38,429 nucleotides of DNA, from positions 1 through 38,429 of IMG/VR virus record IMGVR_UViG_3300029818_000063; one strand, 5' to 3'. Source of the DNA: a virus. Lineage: Duplodnaviria > Caudoviricetes. This document shows, piece by piece, positions 29,920-38,429 of the stretch (the stretch's first letter is position 1; each line of letters begins with the position of its first letter). The notes beneath the pieces were generated by a model, which made no database searches, was not told the DNA's origin, and saw only the letters and a list, made by a program, of their open reading frames with translations. The position numbers were made by a program, and so were the translations under genes.

Positions 29920-30765
29920 ATGCCGCATGAGGTCTCTTTTGTCGATAACTCAAGTCAACTGGCGCATTACGCCATGCTTGAGACCATTCGTGACTTTGCC
30001 GGAGATAACGGTTGGGAGGTACTGCGCTATGACACAGCCCCTGCTGATCGGGAGCTTATTCTCAAGGGCTTTGGTTACAGCGAAGAGGAGGAAATATTTG
30101 TAGGCTTTAGAACCTATCAAAACGCTGGAGCGGATTATTACAATCTCGTTGCTGCAGCTTTTACAGGCTACCTACCAGGTAACCCATTTAATGCTCAGCC
30201 GGGGGCCATGCTCTCAGGCGTGCCAGCCCACAACCAGCGGATCGATTACTGGCTGACGCTCAACCCACAGCGTATAGCATTGGCGATGAAAGTGGGCACG
30301 CCGGTCTATGAGTCGGCCTATGTCGGCAAGTTCTTGCCCTACGCACGCCCCAGTCAGTACCCGTATCCCGTGATCTGCGCAGGCATGCTGAACGGTACGC
30401 CTGCAACACGATTTTCAGACACAGTGCATAGCATCCCTTACAAAGGCTCTCGGCCCCAGATGCGGATGAGGTTCAATGATGGGTCGTGGGCACAGCCTGA
30501 ATGTTGGCCCTATAACAACACGCTTCTAAATGGCTCAATTGCTTCGCAAACTCAACAACGTGATACCAATGGTTCATATCCATCAAATCCGATAGTTCTT
30601 AACTCTGCTATCGGCGTTCTTGGTGAGCTAGATGGTATTCGTCATATAACAGGGTTCAATAACGCTGTTGAAAATACGTTTGAGCTGGATGGTAAAGACT
30701 GGGTTGTTATACAAGATGTCAGCCGTAATGGTTTCAGTGACTATTATTCCATGAGGCTTGATTAA
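29920..30765 (+). CDS. Virion structural (tail) protein
   Basis: First gene after the tape measure, as in D3112/B3-type tails; YARPSQYPYP, GELDG...ITGFNNAVEN. Confidence 0.8.
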   Translation: MPHEVSFVDNSSQLAHYAMLETIRDFAGDNGWEVLRYDTAPADRELILKGFGYSEEEEIFVGFRTYQNAGADYYNLVAAAFTGYLPGNPFNAQPGAMLSGVPAHNQRIDYWLTLNPQRIALAMKVGTPVYESAYVGKFLPYARPSQYPYPVICAGMLNGTPATRFSDTVHSIPYKGSRPQMRMRFNDGSWAQPECWPYNNTLLNGSIASQTQQRDTNGSYPSNPIVLNSAIGVLGELDGIRHITGFNNAVENTFELDGKDWVVIQDVSRNGFSDYYSMRLD

Positions 30766-31736
30766 TGGCTTACTACAACGGCAGCGCAAGTTCCTTCGCT
30801 GAGCTGCAATCTCACCTGGTCGACGCTCTGGTTGATCAAGGTTGGATACTCAGCAGCGGCATTCTTAGCAAGGGTTCCGCTTTTGTGAGGCCCTACGTTT
30901 CAAGCACAACAACGACTACAGAGGGTCCAGGCTTATTGATTCAGATGGGCGATGGCCAATCTGGTGCTGCTATCGTCAACCCGGCACCCAATGCTGCTCG
31001 ATTGGGAAGACCAGGCTCTGCGGATAGATTTGAAGGCGTATCGTTTCCTGCTGAGTACTTCATCCACGTATTTGATGACCCTGATGAGGTTTACGTCATC
31101 TTGCGTTTCAACATTGATCGCTATTTTTGGCTTGCGTTTGGTTCATCGAGTCTAAATACCGCTGGAACTGGAAATTGGCTATCTGGATGCGCCCGTCAAG
31201 GCTATATAACAGCCACGGGGCCAACAACCGGCTATTTAATATCACCTACTAGTGGAGGGGTTGGGTCAGCAAACACAGCCAGTGGCGCATCAGTCTCTGG
31301 GGGACTTTTTTGGAATACTCAAAAAATGACGCTGGCTGGTGGTCTAGGGGAATTTGTTAATGCGGGACTCAACAGCTTGTCGTGGAACGGAACAAGTAAT
31401 ACTGGGACAAATAATGCCGCTGAAAGGCTACACGCAGTCGGGTTTATAGCGCCATTGGTCGAGAGGTCACCCAGCCCATGGAACAGTGAAGCGGTTCTTT
31501 TGCCTATCCAGCCCCATGTAACCGTTTCAGAATCTAAGGTTGTTATGGTTGCAGACTTGCAAAATGCACGATATCTGCGCATTGACAATTACGAGCCTGG
31601 TCAAATTTTCAGTATTGGGCCAGAAAGCTGGAAGGTGTACCCATTTTATTTGAAAAATACAGTTTCACGTGATGGCGGGAGCGCTGTAAACCACACGGGT
31701 ACATTCGGAATGGCAATCAGATACGACGGCGCTTGA
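30765..31736 (+). CDS. Virion structural (tail) protein, possible receptor-binding component
   Basis: MAYYNGSA.S, P..WNSEAVLLPI, ARY.RIDNY.PG, HTGTFG.AIRYDG; Gly/Ser/Thr-rich variable middle. Confidence 0.8.
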   Translation: MAYYNGSASSFAELQSHLVDALVDQGWILSSGILSKGSAFVRPYVSSTTTTTEGPGLLIQMGDGQSGAAIVNPAPNAARLGRPGSADRFEGVSFPAEYFIHVFDDPDEVYVILRFNIDRYFWLAFGSSSLNTAGTGNWLSGCARQGYITATGPTTGYLISPTSGGVGSANTASGASVSGGLFWNTQKMTLAGGLGEFVNAGLNSLSWNGTSNTGTNNAAERLHAVGFIAPLVERSPSPWNSEAVLLPIQPHVTVSESKVVMVADLQNARYLRIDNYEPGQIFSIGPESWKVYPFYLKNTVSRDGGSAVNHTGTFGMAIRYDGA

Positions 31737-31738
31737 TT

Positions 31739-33457
31739 ATGGCCATCCTGACCACATTTGGGATCAACTCGGCCTCAGGCGGCGTTGCTAATCCATATCT
31801 TTCATCAAGTCATGACCTGTTTTCTGCAAATGAGATTGTTGGCTGGCCGCCATTTGAGTCAGTGGTATCTGACTCGTCACCCTCTGAATTGTTATTGCAT
31901 TTTCCAGTCTCTGCAGCATCTAGGCCCATTTCTGTTATCAGGTCTGGCAGTTACCGATACGACTTTTATGATCGTATACATATCGACACCACCCGCGTGG
32001 ACCTAGGCAACCTGGTTTCTATTCAAGTAACCGCGTTGAGTCTCTGGAATGCCCATCTCGAGACTCGTAATTTAGTTGAGCTGACCGGTTTGGTTGAGGG
32101 CCTGGAACTGATCGGTCAGCCTACCCCGCCCCTTGAATTTGCTGCACTCCAGGAGCGTGAATATGAGCTATCTGTTTCACCTGAGGGTGAATCGGTTGTT
32201 GACACCTTGGTACGGTGGGTCTTCGCAAATGGCGAGGAGGTCGTGCTTCGCGTAACCGCCAACCGAATTGTTGCATGGTCCTTTGTGCCAGACTGGGGCG
32301 ATGGTGTTAAAGAGAGTCTTGAGTTCCTGACTGATGTGTTGGCTTCAGAAAGTTTGGTTGAACAGCGCCGGGGTTTGCGTACAGCGCCAAGAAGAGAGTT
32401 CAAAGCCCCAATGTTTGTTGAGGGTCGAGATCGTCAAATGTTGGATCTTGCTTTGTTCGGTTGGGGCAGCAGAGTGTGGGCGCTGCCGATTTGGCCTGAT
32501 ATTCAATTTCTGAAAAATCCGTTGGAGTCAACCGCTTCCCGAATCGATGCTGAAACAGAATATCTGGACTTTGTAACGGGTGGCCTTGCAATGTTGAGGG
32601 GTGAATCAGCCCGCGAATATGAAGTGGTTGAAATCGACTCTATTGATTCAACAGGTATAGATCTCAAGCGTCCCCTGCAGCAAAGCTGGCCTGCTGGCAC
32701 CCGGCTGTACCCAGCGCGTCCAGCTCAATTAATGCGGCAGCCGGAGACTACAAGACTGACTGATCAGCTTGATGAAGCTGAGGTGCAATTTTTGCTCCTG
32801 GGCGTAAGTGACTGGCCTGCTTTAACTGTAGAGGACCTCCCTACCTATCGCGCACAATTAGTGTATGACGATCGTCCGGATGAATCAGAAGACCTTACCC
32901 GTTTATTCCAGCGCAGCTTGATCACACTCGATAGCCGAACAGGACCACCATTGGTAACTGACGTCGCAGGCCGAGCTATGCCTGTCACAGGCTTTGGTTG
33001 GTTAGAAATGGGTCGTGCGCAACGTGCTCGTTACCGGTCGCTTTTATACACCTTGGCGGGAAAGCGCACAGCTGTATGGATTCCGACTCACGCCGACGAT
33101 CTGACTCTGGTTAACCCGGCTAGTGATGCCGAGCCCTTTATTGATGTCGCTCACGTCGGTTATACGCGTTTCGGGCAGGCCCGTGTGGGTCGAAGGGATA
33201 TTCGCGTAGAGCTTTTCTCAGGAGAGATTTATTACCGCAGAATCAACTCATCCTCTGAAATCAGTTCAGACGTTGAGCGGCTTTTCATAAATGAGCCCCT
33301 CGGGCTATCAGTGAACCCGGAAGGAGTTAAGCGAATTTGCTGGCTGGTTTTGTCACGTGGCGCATCAGATACCTCTGATATTGATCATATGGCTGACAGT
33401 GAAGGGCTCGCCTCGGCGCAGATTGTTTTTATGGGAGTGGCAGACGATGTCATTTGA
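31739..33457 (+). CDS. Virion structural (tail) protein
   Basis: DFYDRIHI....DLGN, W.F.PDW.DGV.E.LEFLT, EQRR.LR.APRR, WPAGTRLYP; conserved position. Confidence 0.8.
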   Translation: MAILTTFGINSASGGVANPYLSSSHDLFSANEIVGWPPFESVVSDSSPSELLLHFPVSAASRPISVIRSGSYRYDFYDRIHIDTTRVDLGNLVSIQVTALSLWNAHLETRNLVELTGLVEGLELIGQPTPPLEFAALQEREYELSVSPEGESVVDTLVRWVFANGEEVVLRVTANRIVAWSFVPDWGDGVKESLEFLTDVLASESLVEQRRGLRTAPRREFKAPMFVEGRDRQMLDLALFGWGSRVWALPIWPDIQFLKNPLESTASRIDAETEYLDFVTGGLAMLRGESAREYEVVEIDSIDSTGIDLKRPLQQSWPAGTRLYPARPAQLMRQPETTRLTDQLDEAEVQFLLLGVSDWPALTVEDLPTYRAQLVYDDRPDESEDLTRLFQRSLITLDSRTGPPLVTDVAGRAMPVTGFGWLEMGRAQRARYRSLLYTLAGKRTAVWIPTHADDLTLVNPASDAEPFIDVAHVGYTRFGQARVGRRDIRVELFSGEIYYRRINSSSEISSDVERLFINEPLGLSVNPEGVKRICWLVLSRGASDTSDIDHMADSEGLASAQIVFMGVADDVI

Positions 33458-34268
33458 TAGTCGCGAGTTCTCAATTGCTCAAGGAATCCCGGTGCGACTC
33501 TACAGGTTTCACAGAGGGGTAACACTCTGGCTCTACTGCACAGCAGACCGAAATATTGAGCTGGGTGTGCAAACGTTCAGATCAGTTTTAGGCGGTATCT
33601 CAGACTCCGGCATACAGCAGACTGGTGACGCTAAATCAGACGGCTTAACGATTACTGCACCGGCATCACTTGATGTTGTTCAGCCCTTCAGGGCATTTCC
33701 GCCCAGCGACCCTATAGGTTTATCAGTTTTTGATATGCACTACGGTGATACAGAAGCTCGACTAGCGGGCAGCTATCGTATCAGCAGTGTGGGCTTTCCT
33801 GCCCTTGATCGATGCAAGATTAAATGTGTGACCAGGGATTCAGAAATGGGAGAGCCAGGGCTTCTGGATGCCTATATGCGCACATGCACTGCTGTTTTGG
33901 GTGACAGGCGCTGCAAAGTTGATCTTGAGTCGTACAGGGTAGATTTGTCGATAGACAGCCGGAATGGGTTATCTGTTTTCAGTAGCGACCTATCGGATTA
34001 TCCGGCTGGATGGTTTACAGGTGGATACGTGGCATGGGCAGTTGGTGGCGGTGAGTTCGACCGAAGATTTATTGATCGTCACATATCAAATGAGCTCCAA
34101 CTGTTGGGTGGCACTGTAGGCATTCCGCCTGCAGCCCAGCTCAGGGCCTACCCCGGCTGCGACTTTCTTGCCAGTACGTGCCATAGCAAGTTTGGCAATT
34201 CATTAAACAATAGGGGCATTCCACATCTACAGCTCGATAGCCCCTTTGACGGCAACCAGGTCTGGTGA
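33447..34268 (+). CDS. Tail hub / BR0599 (DUF2163) family protein
   Basis: C...LGD.RC.V, YPGCD.....C..KF.N..N..G.PH Cys cluster; start ATG 33447 after GGGAG. Confidence 0.88.
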   Translation: MSFDSREFSIAQGIPVRLYRFHRGVTLWLYCTADRNIELGVQTFRSVLGGISDSGIQQTGDAKSDGLTITAPASLDVVQPFRAFPPSDPIGLSVFDMHYGDTEARLAGSYRISSVGFPALDRCKIKCVTRDSEMGEPGLLDAYMRTCTAVLGDRRCKVDLESYRVDLSIDSRNGLSVFSSDLSDYPAGWFTGGYVAWAVGGGEFDRRFIDRHISNELQLLGGTVGIPPAAQLRAYPGCDFLASTCHSKFGNSLNNRGIPHLQLDSPFDGNQVW

Positions 34269-34278
34269 GGGCTTAAAT

Positions 34279-34506
34279 ATGGGGCTTTTTCTTGTATTAA
34301 TTGTATCGGTTTTCATCATGAGCGCTTTGACCCCAAAGCCGCCTCAGCCGAAGCCGACTGCGTTTGAAGACATCGATTTCCCACAAGCAGAGGAAGGCAC
34401 TGCCCAAAGTGCTGTGTTCGGTCAGGTATGGTCGAAGGGTTGGATGGTGCTAACTGTGGGTAACTATCGGACGCGCCCAATCGTAAAAAAGGCTGGCAAG
34501 AAATGA
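34279..34506 (+). CDS. Small tail assembly protein
   Basis: Hydrophobic N-terminus, PKP..PKP..FEDIDFPQ.EEGT.Q..VFG.VW. Confidence 0.8.
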   Translation: MGLFLVLIVSVFIMSALTPKPPQPKPTAFEDIDFPQAEEGTAQSAVFGQVWSKGWMVLTVGNYRTRPIVKKAGKK

Positions 34507-34724
34507 TCATTACCATACAGCACCTGCACAGTGTTCCAACATGGAACGGGCGGCAAGGGTTTTGCCACCGGGCCTCGCGGGAATTTTTCCAGCGGCACAA
34601 TTTGAATTGGTTTGAATTTCTAAACCACGGCATTGATGAGCGCCTGCTTGTTGCGACAGGCGATGACCGTGCCTTGACGCTAGTCCAGCACGCTCATGCG
34701 GAGGCAGAAAATGGGCAGCAGTAG
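34503..34724 (+). CDS. Small tail assembly protein
   Basis: IT.QHL..VP......GFC....R.FF.RH.L.W..F...GI....L.ATGD..A. Confidence 0.82.
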   Translation: MIITIQHLHSVPTWNGRQGFCHRASREFFQRHNLNWFEFLNHGIDERLLVATGDDRALTLVQHAHAEAENGQQ

Positions 34725-36861
34725 TTCAAGCCAAACAGTCGGATATCGTTATTACTTTGATATTCACATGGGCCTCGGCCTGCCACTTGATGAGATGGTC
34801 GAGATTCGTGCCAGCGACAAAAGGGCCTGGCGTGGCTCAGTAACGTCCAACCAACAAATTGTTATCAACGCCCCTAAATTGTTTGGTGGTGATGACGGTG
34901 AAGGCGGCCTGCAGGGTACCCTGGATGTGCTGTTTGGTGAGGAGGATCAAGGCATATTACCTAAGCTGGCAAGCATGCTGGGCGGCGTTGTTCCTGCATT
35001 CAGAGGTATTACAACCGCGTTTTACTCCGGACTGGTCACTAGTATGAACCCATATCCCAAGCCCTGGGAGATCCTCCGTCGGGGCGGAAACCGTTTGTGG
35101 GATGCTGAGGGCGCGTGGTACCCCGAGAAGCAGTTCATATGGCTCGCCGATGGTGAGATCAAGGCTATGAACCCCGTGCATATTCTTTATCTGATTCGCA
35201 CTGGTAGTCGTTTCAGGGGCTGGCCAAGGGAGTGGATGGATGATGCGGCATGGAGGGCGGCAGCTGATACCTGTTTTGATGAGCAGCTCGGCCTATGCCT
35301 GGAATGGACCAGAAGCGATTCTTTCCAAACATTCAGCTCCGCTGTAACGAACCATATCAGTGCTGAAATCTTCGACGACCGGCGGACCGGTCTGATTAAA
35401 ATACGTCTGATGCGGGATGATTATGACCCTGAAGCCCTGCCTCTATTTGACGAAAATTCTGGGCTACTTGAGGTTGTTGAAGACGACAATACATCTAATG
35501 ATGAGTCGCCCAGCGAACTCTTCGTCAAATATACAGATGCCATAGATGGCAAGAAAAAGACTGTACGCGCGGTTAACAGCGCTGTAGCAGCGCGTGATCG
35601 TGGCCGAGCATCAGAGACCATTGAATACCCAGGAGCACCTACAGCCCAGATTGCATCGCGATTGGCGGCACGTGATATGCGCATCCGAACATCAGGCCTG
35701 AAGCGATTCAAAATAGTTCTGGACCGCCGCGCTCGTGATCTAGAGCCAGGTCAGCCTTTTCGCATACGTTCATTGCGACGCGGCATAGACATTGTCGTGC
35801 TGAGGGCAGGTAAAATCAAAGATGGAACCTTACTGGATGGGCGTATAGAGATCACAGCGGTTCAAGATGTTTTCGGGCTGCCTGCAACAAGCTATGTATC
35901 TGTTCCGCCGGCGGGCTGGGCGCCTCCCGATCGTACCCCAGCCCCTGTTGCGGTAAGGCAGGTATTCGAGCTCCCATATCGCGATATTTCAGCGATTACA
36001 GACCCCGCAAATTTGGCGTTGATAGATGTGACCGCGGCGTATTTCGGGGCGGTTGGTACATCGCCGACAACCATGGCCATTGGTTACAGACTGGCAACAC
36101 GCGTTGGTGCCAGCGGCGAATTTGTTGACCGAGGCGGTGCTGGCTGGTGCCCATCTGCCCAGCTCTCTGCTGATATCGGCCGTTTGCAAACTGTTGTTCA
36201 GTTAACAGGTATGACTCGCGCTGATGAGGTGGCAATAGGCAGCGCGGCGTTGCTCGGGTCTGAAGTCGTTCGCATTGACGCGCTGGATATTGATACTGGC
36301 ATAGCTACGATCGGAAGGGGGTGCGCTGATACCACGCCTGCCGCCCACTCAGCGGATACCAGAATCTGGTTTTATGAACAGAATGCAGCAGTTGATGATA
36401 CCGCTTACAGCATGGGTACCGGTATGCAAGCCAAAATGCTGACTGTAACCACTGCGGGAGAACTGGGGCCTGATTTGGCTCCGATTGATTCGATTACGCT
36501 GCAGGCGCGGCAGGGCAAACCGTATCCACCTGGACGATTGCGCATCAATGACAATGAAAACCCAGCTAGCGCCGTAAGCCCAGTTACTCTCTCCTGGTCT
36601 CACAGAGACCGTGTGAGCCAGTCTGATCAGTTGATCGATACTACTATTGGAAACATTGGACCCGAGCCTGGCACCAGCTATACGGCCCGGCTATTGCGTT
36701 CTGACACGTTAGCGGTTTTGGATATTGAAAGCGGTATATCCGGCACGTCAGTGGTTTTGGAGTCAGCATATGCTGGCGAAGTAATTGTTGAGGTGTGGTC
36801 TGTTCGTGATGGCATTGTCTCGTGGCAACGCTTGAGCCACTCCTTTACGCTCACCATTTAA
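34711..36861 (+). CDS. Tail tip / central tail hub protein
   Basis: TVGYRY.FDIHMG, LFGG..GEGG.QG, NPYPKPW, MNPVHI, RGCADT.P..H, PYPPG, W.HRDR..Q.DQL. Confidence 0.88.
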   Translation: MGSSSSSQTVGYRYYFDIHMGLGLPLDEMVEIRASDKRAWRGSVTSNQQIVINAPKLFGGDDGEGGLQGTLDVLFGEEDQGILPKLASMLGGVVPAFRGITTAFYSGLVTSMNPYPKPWEILRRGGNRLWDAEGAWYPEKQFIWLADGEIKAMNPVHILYLIRTGSRFRGWPREWMDDAAWRAAADTCFDEQLGLCLEWTRSDSFQTFSSAVTNHISAEIFDDRRTGLIKIRLMRDDYDPEALPLFDENSGLLEVVEDDNTSNDESPSELFVKYTDAIDGKKKTVRAVNSAVAARDRGRASETIEYPGAPTAQIASRLAARDMRIRTSGLKRFKIVLDRRARDLEPGQPFRIRSLRRGIDIVVLRAGKIKDGTLLDGRIEITAVQDVFGLPATSYVSVPPAGWAPPDRTPAPVAVRQVFELPYRDISAITDPANLALIDVTAAYFGAVGTSPTTMAIGYRLATRVGASGEFVDRGGAGWCPSAQLSADIGRLQTVVQLTGMTRADEVAIGSAALLGSEVVRIDALDIDTGIATIGRGCADTTPAAHSADTRIWFYEQNAAVDDTAYSMGTGMQAKMLTVTTAGELGPDLAPIDSITLQARQGKPYPPGRLRINDNENPASAVSPVTLSWSHRDRVSQSDQLIDTTIGNIGPEPGTSYTARLLRSDTLAVLDIESGISGTSVVLESAYAGEVIVEVWSVRDGIVSWQRLSHSFTLTI

Positions 36862-36995
36862 GAACGGGTGACCGGACCAGGTGCTGTAACACTTGATCCG
36901 GCCGCCAACCTGCAGAACTGAGCTGCAAGCCAGCCAAGACCCGCTACACTCGCGAGTGCCGGGCAAGGCTATCAGAAAATGAAAAGGCTTTGCAG
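36862..36995. promoter_or_regulatory. Structured intergenic leader upstream of com (three hairpins; possible antisense sRNA)
   Basis: Stems at 36867-36906, 36911-36927 and 36932-36970; minus-strand extended -10 TGATAGCCT at 36974-36966. Confidence 0.5.
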
Positions 36996-37202
36996 ATGTT
37001 GAAAATACTACGTTGCGGTAGTTGTAATCGAATGCTGGCAAAAACCAGCTCAGCAAGCGTCATCGAGATCAAGTGTCCGCGCTGCGGCACACTCAACCAT
37101 CAGAAGGCCATGAGCCTCCAAACATGCGCGCCACTGAGCGCCAATTGTGGAGGCCATCATGGCAAAACAAGCGAAACAACCACCGGGTCAGAACGGGTTT
37201 AA
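36996..37202 (+). CDS. com: Com family zinc-finger translational activator
   Basis: MLKILRCGSCNRMLAK...IEIKCPRC matches the Mu Com pattern (RC..CN.LL....IEI.CPRC); right-end position. Confidence 0.92.
   Translation: MLKILRCGSCNRMLAKTSSASVIEIKCPRCGTLNHQKAMSLQTCAPLSANCGGHHGKTSETTTGSERV
37107..37163 (+). promoter_or_regulatory. Translation-inhibition hairpin sequestering the SD and AUG of the gene after com
   Basis: GCCATGA-GCCTCCA (37107-37120) pairs with TGGAGGC-ca-TCATGGC (37148-37163). Confidence 0.75.
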
Positions 37203-37314
37203 ATATAAGCCCCAGTTCGGCGTCATCATTATCTGTCCAGATGAGACCGCCCAGCAGCGGGCCTTCGAAACGCTCAAGAGTAGCGGGCATAAAGTAAGGG
37301 TGGTGTGCGTATGA
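37159..37314 (+). CDS. 51-aa protein absent from the ORF track (MAKQAKQPPGQNGFKYKPQFGVIIICPDETAQQRAFETLKSSGHKVRVVCV)
   Basis: GGAGG SD at 37149-37153; starts inside com; stop forms an ATGA overlap with the next gene; beta-alpha-beta pattern. Confidence 0.8.
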   Translation: MAKQAKQPPGQNGFKYKPQFGVIIICPDETAQQRAFETLKSSGHKVRVVCV

Positions 37315-38429
37315 AAATTCATATCCAGCACCACTGCCCGGATTCAAATAGCTACCGCGCCGCGAGGGTCAAGTCCCTGTTCAATGTCGACCAGGGCAAC
37401 GAGGTCACGATTGATGCCGATCTGCCGATTGAAGACATGTCATGGCAGATTGGGGTGATAGTTGGCCCATCCGGCTCGGGTAAAAGCAGCATCGGCCGCA
37501 AGTTCAAGGCGCCTTATAACCCCCGCTGGTCCAAAGATCAGCCGATCATTGATGCTATTGCTCCAGATCAGGCGTTTGACCAGGTACCTGCCGCGCTTTC
37601 TGCTGTCGGGCTGGGGTCTGTGCCTGCCTGGCTCCGCCCTTACCAAGTGCTTTCGATGGGTGAGCAGTTTCGCGCAACGCTGGCCCGCTTGGTCTGCGAG
37701 GCGCCTCGTCTTGCTGTGGTCGACGAGTTCAGCTCTGTAATCGATCGGCAGATCGCCCAGATCGGAGCGGGGGCATTCGCTAAAGCATGGCGGCGAACTG
37801 CAGGGCAAGTTGTTCTCCTGTCGTGCCACTACGACATTCTCGACTGGGTGCAGCCGGATTGGGTGTATGACACCGCGTCCGGTGAATTCCTCAGGGGGTG
37901 GCACCGGCGACGGCCATGCATTCAGCTCGAGGTACGCCAAGCTGCTCAGCGCGACTATGCCCCCTTTGAAGAGCATCACTATCTGAAACTCCCGCCCATG
38001 GTTGCGGCAACGCACTACACCGGTTGGGTTGACGGCCAACCGGTCGCCCACGTCGCGTTTGCAACCCGGCCTGGCCTTATTGAGGCTAGAGCCTGCCGGC
38101 TGGTTGTGATGCCAGAGTGGCAGGGCGCGGGCGTTGGCATGCGGTTCCTTAATGCTGTTTGCGAGCTCTGGCTTGCTGGAGATAACAGGCATCGGCTCCC
38201 CCTTAGGACACTATTTCACACCAGCCACCCCGGCCTGGCGGCCGCGCTTCGGCGCGACCGACGTTGGACGCAGGTCTCGGCTAACTTGGTCGGAGGTAAC
38301 AAGGCGAAGAGTGCGGCATCACTTCATGCCAGCGCCGCTCGTCTAGGCAAACCCAAGGCAGGCAGCGGCTTCGGTGGCCACTTCCGGGCTGTACAGGGCT
38401 TCAGATATCTGGGGGAAACATGCGAATAG
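37311..38429 (+). CDS. ABC-type ATPase fused to GNAT acyltransferase
   Basis: Walker A GPSGSGKS, signature LSMGE, Walker B AVVDEFS, H-loop SCH; GNAT motif A RLVVMPEWQGAGVG; start reset to ATG 37311. Confidence 0.9.
   Translation: MKIHIQHHCPDSNSYRAARVKSLFNVDQGNEVTIDADLPIEDMSWQIGVIVGPSGSGKSSIGRKFKAPYNPRWSKDQPIIDAIAPDQAFDQVPAALSAVGLGSVPAWLRPYQVLSMGEQFRATLARLVCEAPRLAVVDEFSSVIDRQIAQIGAGAFAKAWRRTAGQVVLLSCHYDILDWVQPDWVYDTASGEFLRGWHRRRPCIQLEVRQAAQRDYAPFEEHHYLKLPPMVAATHYTGWVDGQPVAHVAFATRPGLIEARACRLVVMPEWQGAGVGMRFLNAVCELWLAGDNRHRLPLRTLFHTSHPGLAAALRRDRRWTQVSANLVGGNKAKSAASLHASAARLGKPKAGSGFGGHFRAVQGFRYLGETCE

Follow-up and report, generated by a model that had tools for sequence, protein, structure and literature searches.

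A com-linked ABC-ATPase–GNAT cassette in a Mu-like prophage: a candidate DNA-acylation system with a putative formyl-CoA supply of its own

In phage Mu, the gene com is followed by mom, and the question arises what a phage gains from a different enzyme at the same position. Such an arrangement is found at the right end of a viral DNA of 38,429 nucleotides (IMG/VR record IMGVR_UViG_3300029818_000063, analyzed over its full length and referred to as the window), where com precedes a small gene and a gene for an ABC ATPase fused to a GNAT domain (Table 1). The window (G000:C56:224154-262582) lies within an intact, Mu-like prophage of 39,203 bp (G000:C56:223488-262690, i.e., -107 to 39095 in window coordinates), which encodes Mor, a transposase, a Mu portal and a Mu protease, has the ends TG...CA and is flanked by a 6-bp target duplication. 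The prophage is inserted into a host regulator gene in a flagellar region, the frame of which is open across the empty site. GC content is 62% for the head genes and 59% for the cassette but falls to 51% for the distal tail genes (29920-36861), which suggests a swapped tail module.

The first-pass annotation of the window had grouped com, the small gene and the ABC-GNAT gene, and had suggested that further components might lie past the window end. Both hold: the three genes overlap consecutively, head to tail, and each matches a known profile (Table 1), while the stop of ABC-GNAT is the final codon of the window, and reading on downstream, as had been advised, revealed a 198-aa formyltransferase (FT), whose start overlaps the last 10 nt of ABC-GNAT. 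The FT gene (G000:C56:223567-224163, minus strand of the contig) is the last gene of the prophage, 79 nt from its right end. None of the four cassette proteins has a predicted transmembrane segment.

Table 1. Features of the cassette, in window coordinates.
Feature	Position	Strand	Evidence
com, Zn-ribbon translational activator, 68 aa	36996..37202	+	PF10122 E 1.9e-18; phrog_6417/13819; same place as Mu com before mom
Predicted RNA off-switch hairpin in leader	37107..37163	+	folding versus shuffles
Small protein, 51 aa	37159..37314	+	phrog_28816; ParB C-terminal-domain homology
ABC-ATPase-GNAT fusion, 372 aa	37311..38429	+	phrog_11143, E 3e-157
Formyltransferase (FT), 198 aa	38420..39016 (running past the window end at 38429)	+	PF00551 E 1e-15

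What the position after com usually holds was surveyed in a search with Com only, in which the next gene could be read in 75 of the best 80 out of 279 viral loci (five had no readable next gene), with gene families confirmed on one representative per cluster. The next gene encodes a D12 adenine methylase in 34 loci, an N6/N4 methylase in 31 and Mom in six; the remaining slots contain one C5 methylase, one ABC-GNAT cassette and two unrelated genes. With a DNA methylase or Mom in 72 of these 75 slots, the slot of com is a DNA-modification slot, and the earlier reading that ABC-GNAT occupies the place of mom or a methylase is borne out.

The leader of the small gene is predicted to fold into a hairpin (-32.6 kcal/mol; z -4.38, equalled by 0 of 200 shuffles), in which the start codon of this gene and its ribosome-binding site, GGAGG at 37149-37153, are buried; Rfam gave no match in 36700-38429. 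The motif GCC-N2-4-GAGC, which we take to be the Com site, occurs twice in the leader, at 37107 and 37130. Mu com contains one copy; of distinct com leaders, 51/53 and 64/65 carry the motif, whereas its frequency in random stretches is 6% and 2%, respectively. Strong in the present leader, the hairpin is weak in many relatives, and its stability was rejected as a hallmark of com loci, with z <= -2 in 19 of 52 com leaders compared to 12 of 15 leaders without com; the conserved feature of the leader is the short motif, not the stability of the hairpin. Com would bind the GCC-N-GAGC hairpins and free the ribosome-binding site, so that the cassette would be produced only late in lysis. Control by Com and late expression of the cassette are likely.

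The ABC half of the fusion carries a Walker A motif (residues 52-59), the signature LSMGEQFR (114-121), a Walker B motif (135-140) and a CH switch (171-175), and the GNAT half contains QGAGVG (271-276) and GSGFGGHFR (351-359). In 92 aligned relatives, the Walker A G/K, the signature S/G/E, the Walker B D/E, the switch H, Q271 and G272 are invariant, such that the catalytic residues are retained down to ~30% identity, and the canonical CoA loop Q-x-x-G-x-G is near invariant. The acyl-CoA motif noted in the first-pass annotation is present. Its statement that all ABC motifs are intact is slightly overstated: Walker A and B, signature and switch are in place, but a Q-loop Gln was not found among the invariant or near-invariant columns of the 92 relatives. 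Likewise, the Gly-rich stretch described as a basic tail is indeed basic, but forms an internal insertion before the last beta-strand, and is conserved only in the FT-carrying clade. An AlphaFold model (pLDDT 88, pTM 0.82) consists of an ABC nucleotide-binding domain (residues 1-200, about 37311-37910 in the window) and a single, strongly basic GNAT domain (204-370, about 37920-38420; pI 10.4). A stop or frameshift separates the two halves in P335 (L089:2965-4019), pT24 (L091:2902-4074) and L132, which may mean that the fusion is not obligatory. A gene for S-adenosylmethionine decarboxylase lies directly upstream of distant ABC-GNAT genes (L125:364-786, L126).

ABC proteins of this kind are named transporter subunits in databases, and the fold matches of the ABC domain are transporter subunits as well, which could be taken to mean that the gene encodes a transporter ATPase, or else inert cargo. 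The neighborhood of the family speaks largely against both: across 212 loci no membrane partner was found, since only one of 705 neighboring ORFs has >=3 hydrophobic segments, and this one is likely a spurious frame. Adjacency to permeases had been named beforehand as the observation that would speak against a modification system, and the absence of a transmembrane partner noted for the window thus extends to its relatives. Inert cargo is at odds with catalytic residues that stay invariant to ~30% identity and with a gene order that is fixed across phyla. The transporter reading was rejected, and together with the cargo reading we regard it as highly improbable.

If the fusion is an acylating enzyme, its closest relatives become important. 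Fold searches with the whole model and with the GNAT part returned generic ABC and GNAT proteins, none of them prominent, and neither TmcA nor Mom is among the matches listed, which says nothing against a relation to either. The top GNAT matches, the best with Z 13.8 and an rmsd of 2.7 over 134 aligned positions, are tied; they comprise RimI/Ard1-type protein and small-molecule acetyltransferases and single out no substrate. For the GNAT part, the ESM Atlas gave only unnamed viral GNAT clusters. Among the tied matches is 4cry_B, presumably the PanD activator PanZ. More specific hints come from motifs: His and Tyr at positions 223 and 224 (H223 in 91/92, Y224 in 92/92 relatives) and an Arg on beta4 (R263, 92/92). 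The same HY and beta4 Arg occur in Mom (both in 7/7) and in TmcA (HY in 8/8 genomes, the Arg motif in 7/8, as readable by pattern), and the beta4 Arg is absent from four ordinary host GNATs matched by the GNAT profile. In Mom, H58, Y59 and R111 are needed for activity (PMC13219725; PMC7261163; excerpts). A pairwise comparison of the GNAT profile with that of TmcA gave a probability of 79 and E 1.6e-5, confined to the beta4 region, and the comparison with Mom was not significant (hhalign, E 0.11-0.62). PF25680 (Mom) matched neither ABC-GNAT nor any of 74 GNAT domains at E 0.01, and in the absence of a significant profile match membership in the Mom family was rejected. Pfam also gave no match to PF13718/PF05127 (TmcA/NAT10), and the ATPase is of the ABC type, not of the helicase type. 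Kinship of the GNAT domain with base-acylating enzymes would therefore be a kinship of motifs.

With Mom of Mu (PF25680), ABC-GNAT shares the slot after com, the leader motif, the GNAT fold, HY and the beta4 Arg, and, ahead of the last strand, a basic insertion placed like the essential one in Mom (PMC13219725, excerpt). Mom, however, has no ATPase and no FT, uses Gly-tRNA and shows no significant sequence match. The fusion of an ATPase with a GNAT domain is the architecture of TmcA/NAT10, and the motifs HY and R-x-x-x-x-P-x-x-Q-G are common to TmcA and ABC-GNAT; TmcA acylates a nucleobase amine, but does so with a helicase-type ATPase, acetyl-CoA and tRNA as target, whereas here an ABC ATPase would be combined with, probably, formyl-CoA and DNA. 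ABC-GNAT would thus work like TmcA and Mom while belonging to neither family.

The likeness to TmcA also feeds a different explanation, in which the target is not DNA but RNA or protein: the cassette could acylate tRNA or rRNA in the manner of TmcA, or a host defense or virion protein late in infection, with the soluble ABC domain working as it does in ABC-F proteins. TmcA, the closest relative by motifs, does act on tRNA; the best PDB sequence match of the whole fusion is ABCF1 (E 2e-5); the top fold matches include protein acetyltransferases of the RimI/Ard1 type beside small-molecule ones; and the small gene is annotated as an "acr candidate" in Porphyromonas phages. The occupants of the com slot, DNA-modifying enzymes in 72 of 75 cases, weigh against an RNA or protein target, as does a ParB-like partner typical of phage DNA-modifying enzymes (PMC13229309, excerpt). 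The high pI of the GNAT domain and the Mom-like placement of its basic insertion point the same way, but would fit RNA, too. Overall, an RNA or protein target appears unlikely, and DNA remains the preferred one.

The ParB connection is provided by the small gene. Its 51-aa product corresponds by homology to the C-terminal domain of the ParB-like proteins found ahead of ABC-GNAT in other phages, and the ParB proteins of the Gordonia phages Axumite and Jace end in the motif of the small protein. One class of thymine dioxygenases from phages depends on a related ParB (PMC13229309, excerpt). Judged by this homology, the small protein is likely an adaptor. Of 593 viral loci of the fusion, the 80 best all have the small gene upstream, and 58 have com; FT follows in 62 of the 65 loci with >=450 nt downstream. 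Of 590 genomic loci, the 80 best cover several phyla; 79 of them have the small domain, 31 have com and nine have ParB, and FT is found in 66 of the 78 loci scored by the same threshold. FT thus follows ABC-GNAT across many phyla in a fixed order, yet seems dispensable in some copies, as it is missing from 3/65 viral and 12/78 genomic loci. With regard to a possible reliance of such copies on a host enzyme, an FDH-like FT elsewhere in the genome was found in 3/12 of the FT-less hosts, many of which are incomplete MAGs, versus 0-1/12 of FT-bearing hosts beyond the phage copy. The family as a whole is large: of 7998 protein clusters scored, >=5918 reach E 1e-10 or better, and one-genome-per-species data contain ~1400 stretches. 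It is also present in cultured phages of harmless hosts, for which no report of a product was found.

The nature of FT bears on the acyl donor. Its profile matches, as the best solved structure, the hydrolase domain of FDH over the whole length (E 1e-36; Fmt, E 1e-25), and H90, S92 and D126, which correspond to the FDH triad, are invariant in 42 FTs. An Asn two residues before the His has a role in amine formyltransferases; it is present in 14/14 readable outgroups of the Fmt/PurN/PurU/ArnA type (two more gave no motif) and absent from all readable phage FTs (61/61 and 65/65) and from 24/24 readable cellular kin. By its triad, the missing Asn and its best profile match, phage FT would be an FDH-type enzyme, lacking the motif of amine N-formyltransferases. 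The FDH domain formylates the thiol of phosphopantetheine via His106, Ser108 and Asp142, and a related domain of HypX is proposed to make formyl-CoA (PMC6802093, excerpt). The His/Ser/Asp triad is common to phage FT, the hydrolase domain of FDH (ALDH1L1), for which the acceptor is the pantetheine thiol, and the N-domain of HypX; unlike these, phage FT is a stand-alone domain of 198 aa without carrier, dehydrogenase or decarbonylase, and with a presumed acceptor. Gene 3 of a Gordonia phage (L085:1805-2452), annotated as "tRNA-methyltransferase", is this FT (38% identity).

Cellular relatives place the enzyme in the context of formyl-CoA. Close matches were obtained in seven of 251 and in 23 of 301 genomes searched, and gene neighbors were counted in the 26 distinct cellular loci whose FT is full-length, two of them cut by contig ends. 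The gene frc (formyl-CoA transferase) lies within 1.5 kb in 17/26 of these loci, and formate-THF ligase in 13/26; leaving out L228 (unpublished genome G476), which has no frc, frc is beside FT in 17/25. The order oxc-frc-FT-fhs is seen in a wider locus (L222:3597-9518). Operons of this order with an FDH-like FT occur in many proteobacteria (L217-L220, L225-L246); the 730-aa open frame in L226 that resembles a frc-FT fusion does not represent a true one. In a quick, unfinished tree of 57 rows, which was built without eukaryotic FDH and HypX, the nearest cellular kin fall into one group with the phage FTs (SH-aLRT 93). A short, phage-type FT stands alone in genomes G056 and G172 (L215:1501-2085, L216:1501-2085), where ABC-GNAT was not found, and is nested among the phage FTs in the tree. 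From its neighbors, the frc-linked cellular FT may be a so far undescribed formyl-CoA:THF formyltransferase; no description of it was found in the literature.

A second cassette shows another gene set in the place of FT. In the other ABC-GNAT clade (Jace and kin), the FT slot holds a family III CoA-transferase-like gene in 21 loci (14 distinct) and an aspartate decarboxylase in 16 loci (10 distinct); Axumite, the other Gordonia phage, is of the FT type. The CoA-transferase-like protein keeps the frc-like GD motif, and its similarity to Frc is weak (PDB E 0.008; Pfam E 2e-8). The complete order ParB, ABC-GNAT, aspartate decarboxylase, CoA-transferase-like gene is found at L087:2411-5176 and L100:3441-7261, and in L100-L105 a second ABC-GNAT directly follows the decarboxylase/CoA-transferase-like cassette. 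Each of the two cassettes corresponds to one clade, so that the swap of donor genes amounts to two events, not many, and a conserved donor gene was found neither in 80 loci like that of Nonlabens phage P12024S nor in P335, LE3, PX29 and pT24. The gene content of each cassette suggests that it produces an acyl-CoA of its own.

These donor-less relatives are also what an alternative can build on, in which ABC-GNAT modifies phage DNA by means of acetyl-CoA or an aminoacyl-tRNA, while FT, in a second step, formylates the amino group of a transferred amino acid or only adjusts the folate pool. The evidence from the slot and the GNAT motifs fits this alternative equally well, copies and clades without FT exist, and a tailoring role is also conceivable for the aspartate decarboxylase of the other clade. 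Moreover, Mom binds acetyl-CoA and yet uses Gly-tRNA (PMC13219725; PMC7261163; excerpts), so that the donor cannot be read from a CoA motif. Against this alternative stand the lack in FT of the Asn seen in 14/14 readable outgroups, the grouping of FT with frc-linked enzymes, the near-invariant CoA loop Q-x-x-G-x-G and a CoA-transferase-like gene in the other cassette. We consider this explanation rather unlikely.

The preferred mechanism, in which FT supplies formyl-CoA, would run as follows. FT would convert 10-formyl-tetrahydrofolate and CoA into formyl-CoA, moving the formyl group to a thiol and not to an amine. ATP would bring the ABC domains together as a dimer, which, with the small ParB-tail protein as a helper, would clamp the duplex or open it; the GNAT domain would then acylate an exocyclic amine. 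Mom, with Gly-tRNA as donor, makes N6-carbamoylmethyl-adenine, acyl groups at adenine N6 are reported to be unstable, and TmcA acetylates cytidine at N4 (PMC13219725, excerpt); N4-acetyl-dC has been reported in plant DNA (PMC8722123, excerpt). The instability at adenine N6 and the two cases of N4 acetylation weakly favor N4 of cytosine over N6 of adenine. A formyl mark on the phage's own DNA would block restriction and is predicted to act as a shield against host nucleases. The parts of this proposal differ in strength: DNA is the probable target in view of slot and motif context; given DNA, formyl-CoA is a reasonably probable donor; and given both, cytosine N4 is a site that we favor by a little. 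The mechanism in full, with FT making formyl-CoA and an ATP-driven GNAT formylating a base of phage DNA, falls just short of an even chance. That the cassette would be an acylation system analogous to Mom and distinct from it, as the first-pass annotation had suggested, is supported by the surveys of the com slot and of the gene neighborhoods.

The idea of such a system is not new. Iyer et al. reportedly predicted in 2013 a phage system for the acylation of DNA bases by a GNAT coupled to an ABC ATPase. A later paper restates this prediction from 2013, with the product uncharacterized, and names pT24 (PMC7824862, excerpt), which agrees with the earlier suspicion that similar fusions had been predicted computationally. 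The match to Tenacibaculum phage pT24 (35% identity, E 2e-44) places the cassette in the same fusion family, with the same predicted role. In the accessible part of PMC7824862, the system comes without a named donor, base, Com control, adaptor or FT, and the original may say more. In the literature searched, neither an experiment on the cassette nor a description of the link to FT was found, although the 2013 paper and a 2020 classification of ABC ATPases may cover this link; the accessible parts of PMC10853773 and PMC13551039 add nothing further on the cassette, and N4-formyl-deoxycytidine was not found described in phage DNA. The cassette is an intact member of the predicted phage family, set apart by a likely formyl-CoA source of its own and by likely control through Com.

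A broader hypothesis, which we put forward as speculative and doubtful in its entirety, sees an ATP-driven writer of DNA acylation with swappable, self-made acyl-CoA donors in many phyla. The FT clade would draw formyl-CoA from folate and write N4-formyl-deoxycytidine, the sister clade with aspartate decarboxylase and CoA transferase another acyl mark, perhaps beta-alanyl, and the donor-less clades an acetyl mark, while the cellular kin of FT would be an unrecognized formyl-CoA:THF formyltransferase in oxalate operons. If the latter is true, the frc-linked FT, together with Fhs running in reverse, would yield ATP from oxalate. For the phages themselves, the proposed mechanism would imply that genes labeled ABC transporter, tRNA methyltransferase or purN are misnamed, and the prediction of 2013 would become directly testable, with a donor, a base and residues to mutate now named. 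If the proposed mechanism is true, these phages would have a new modified DNA base, an anti-restriction chemistry and a GNAT that runs on formyl-CoA.
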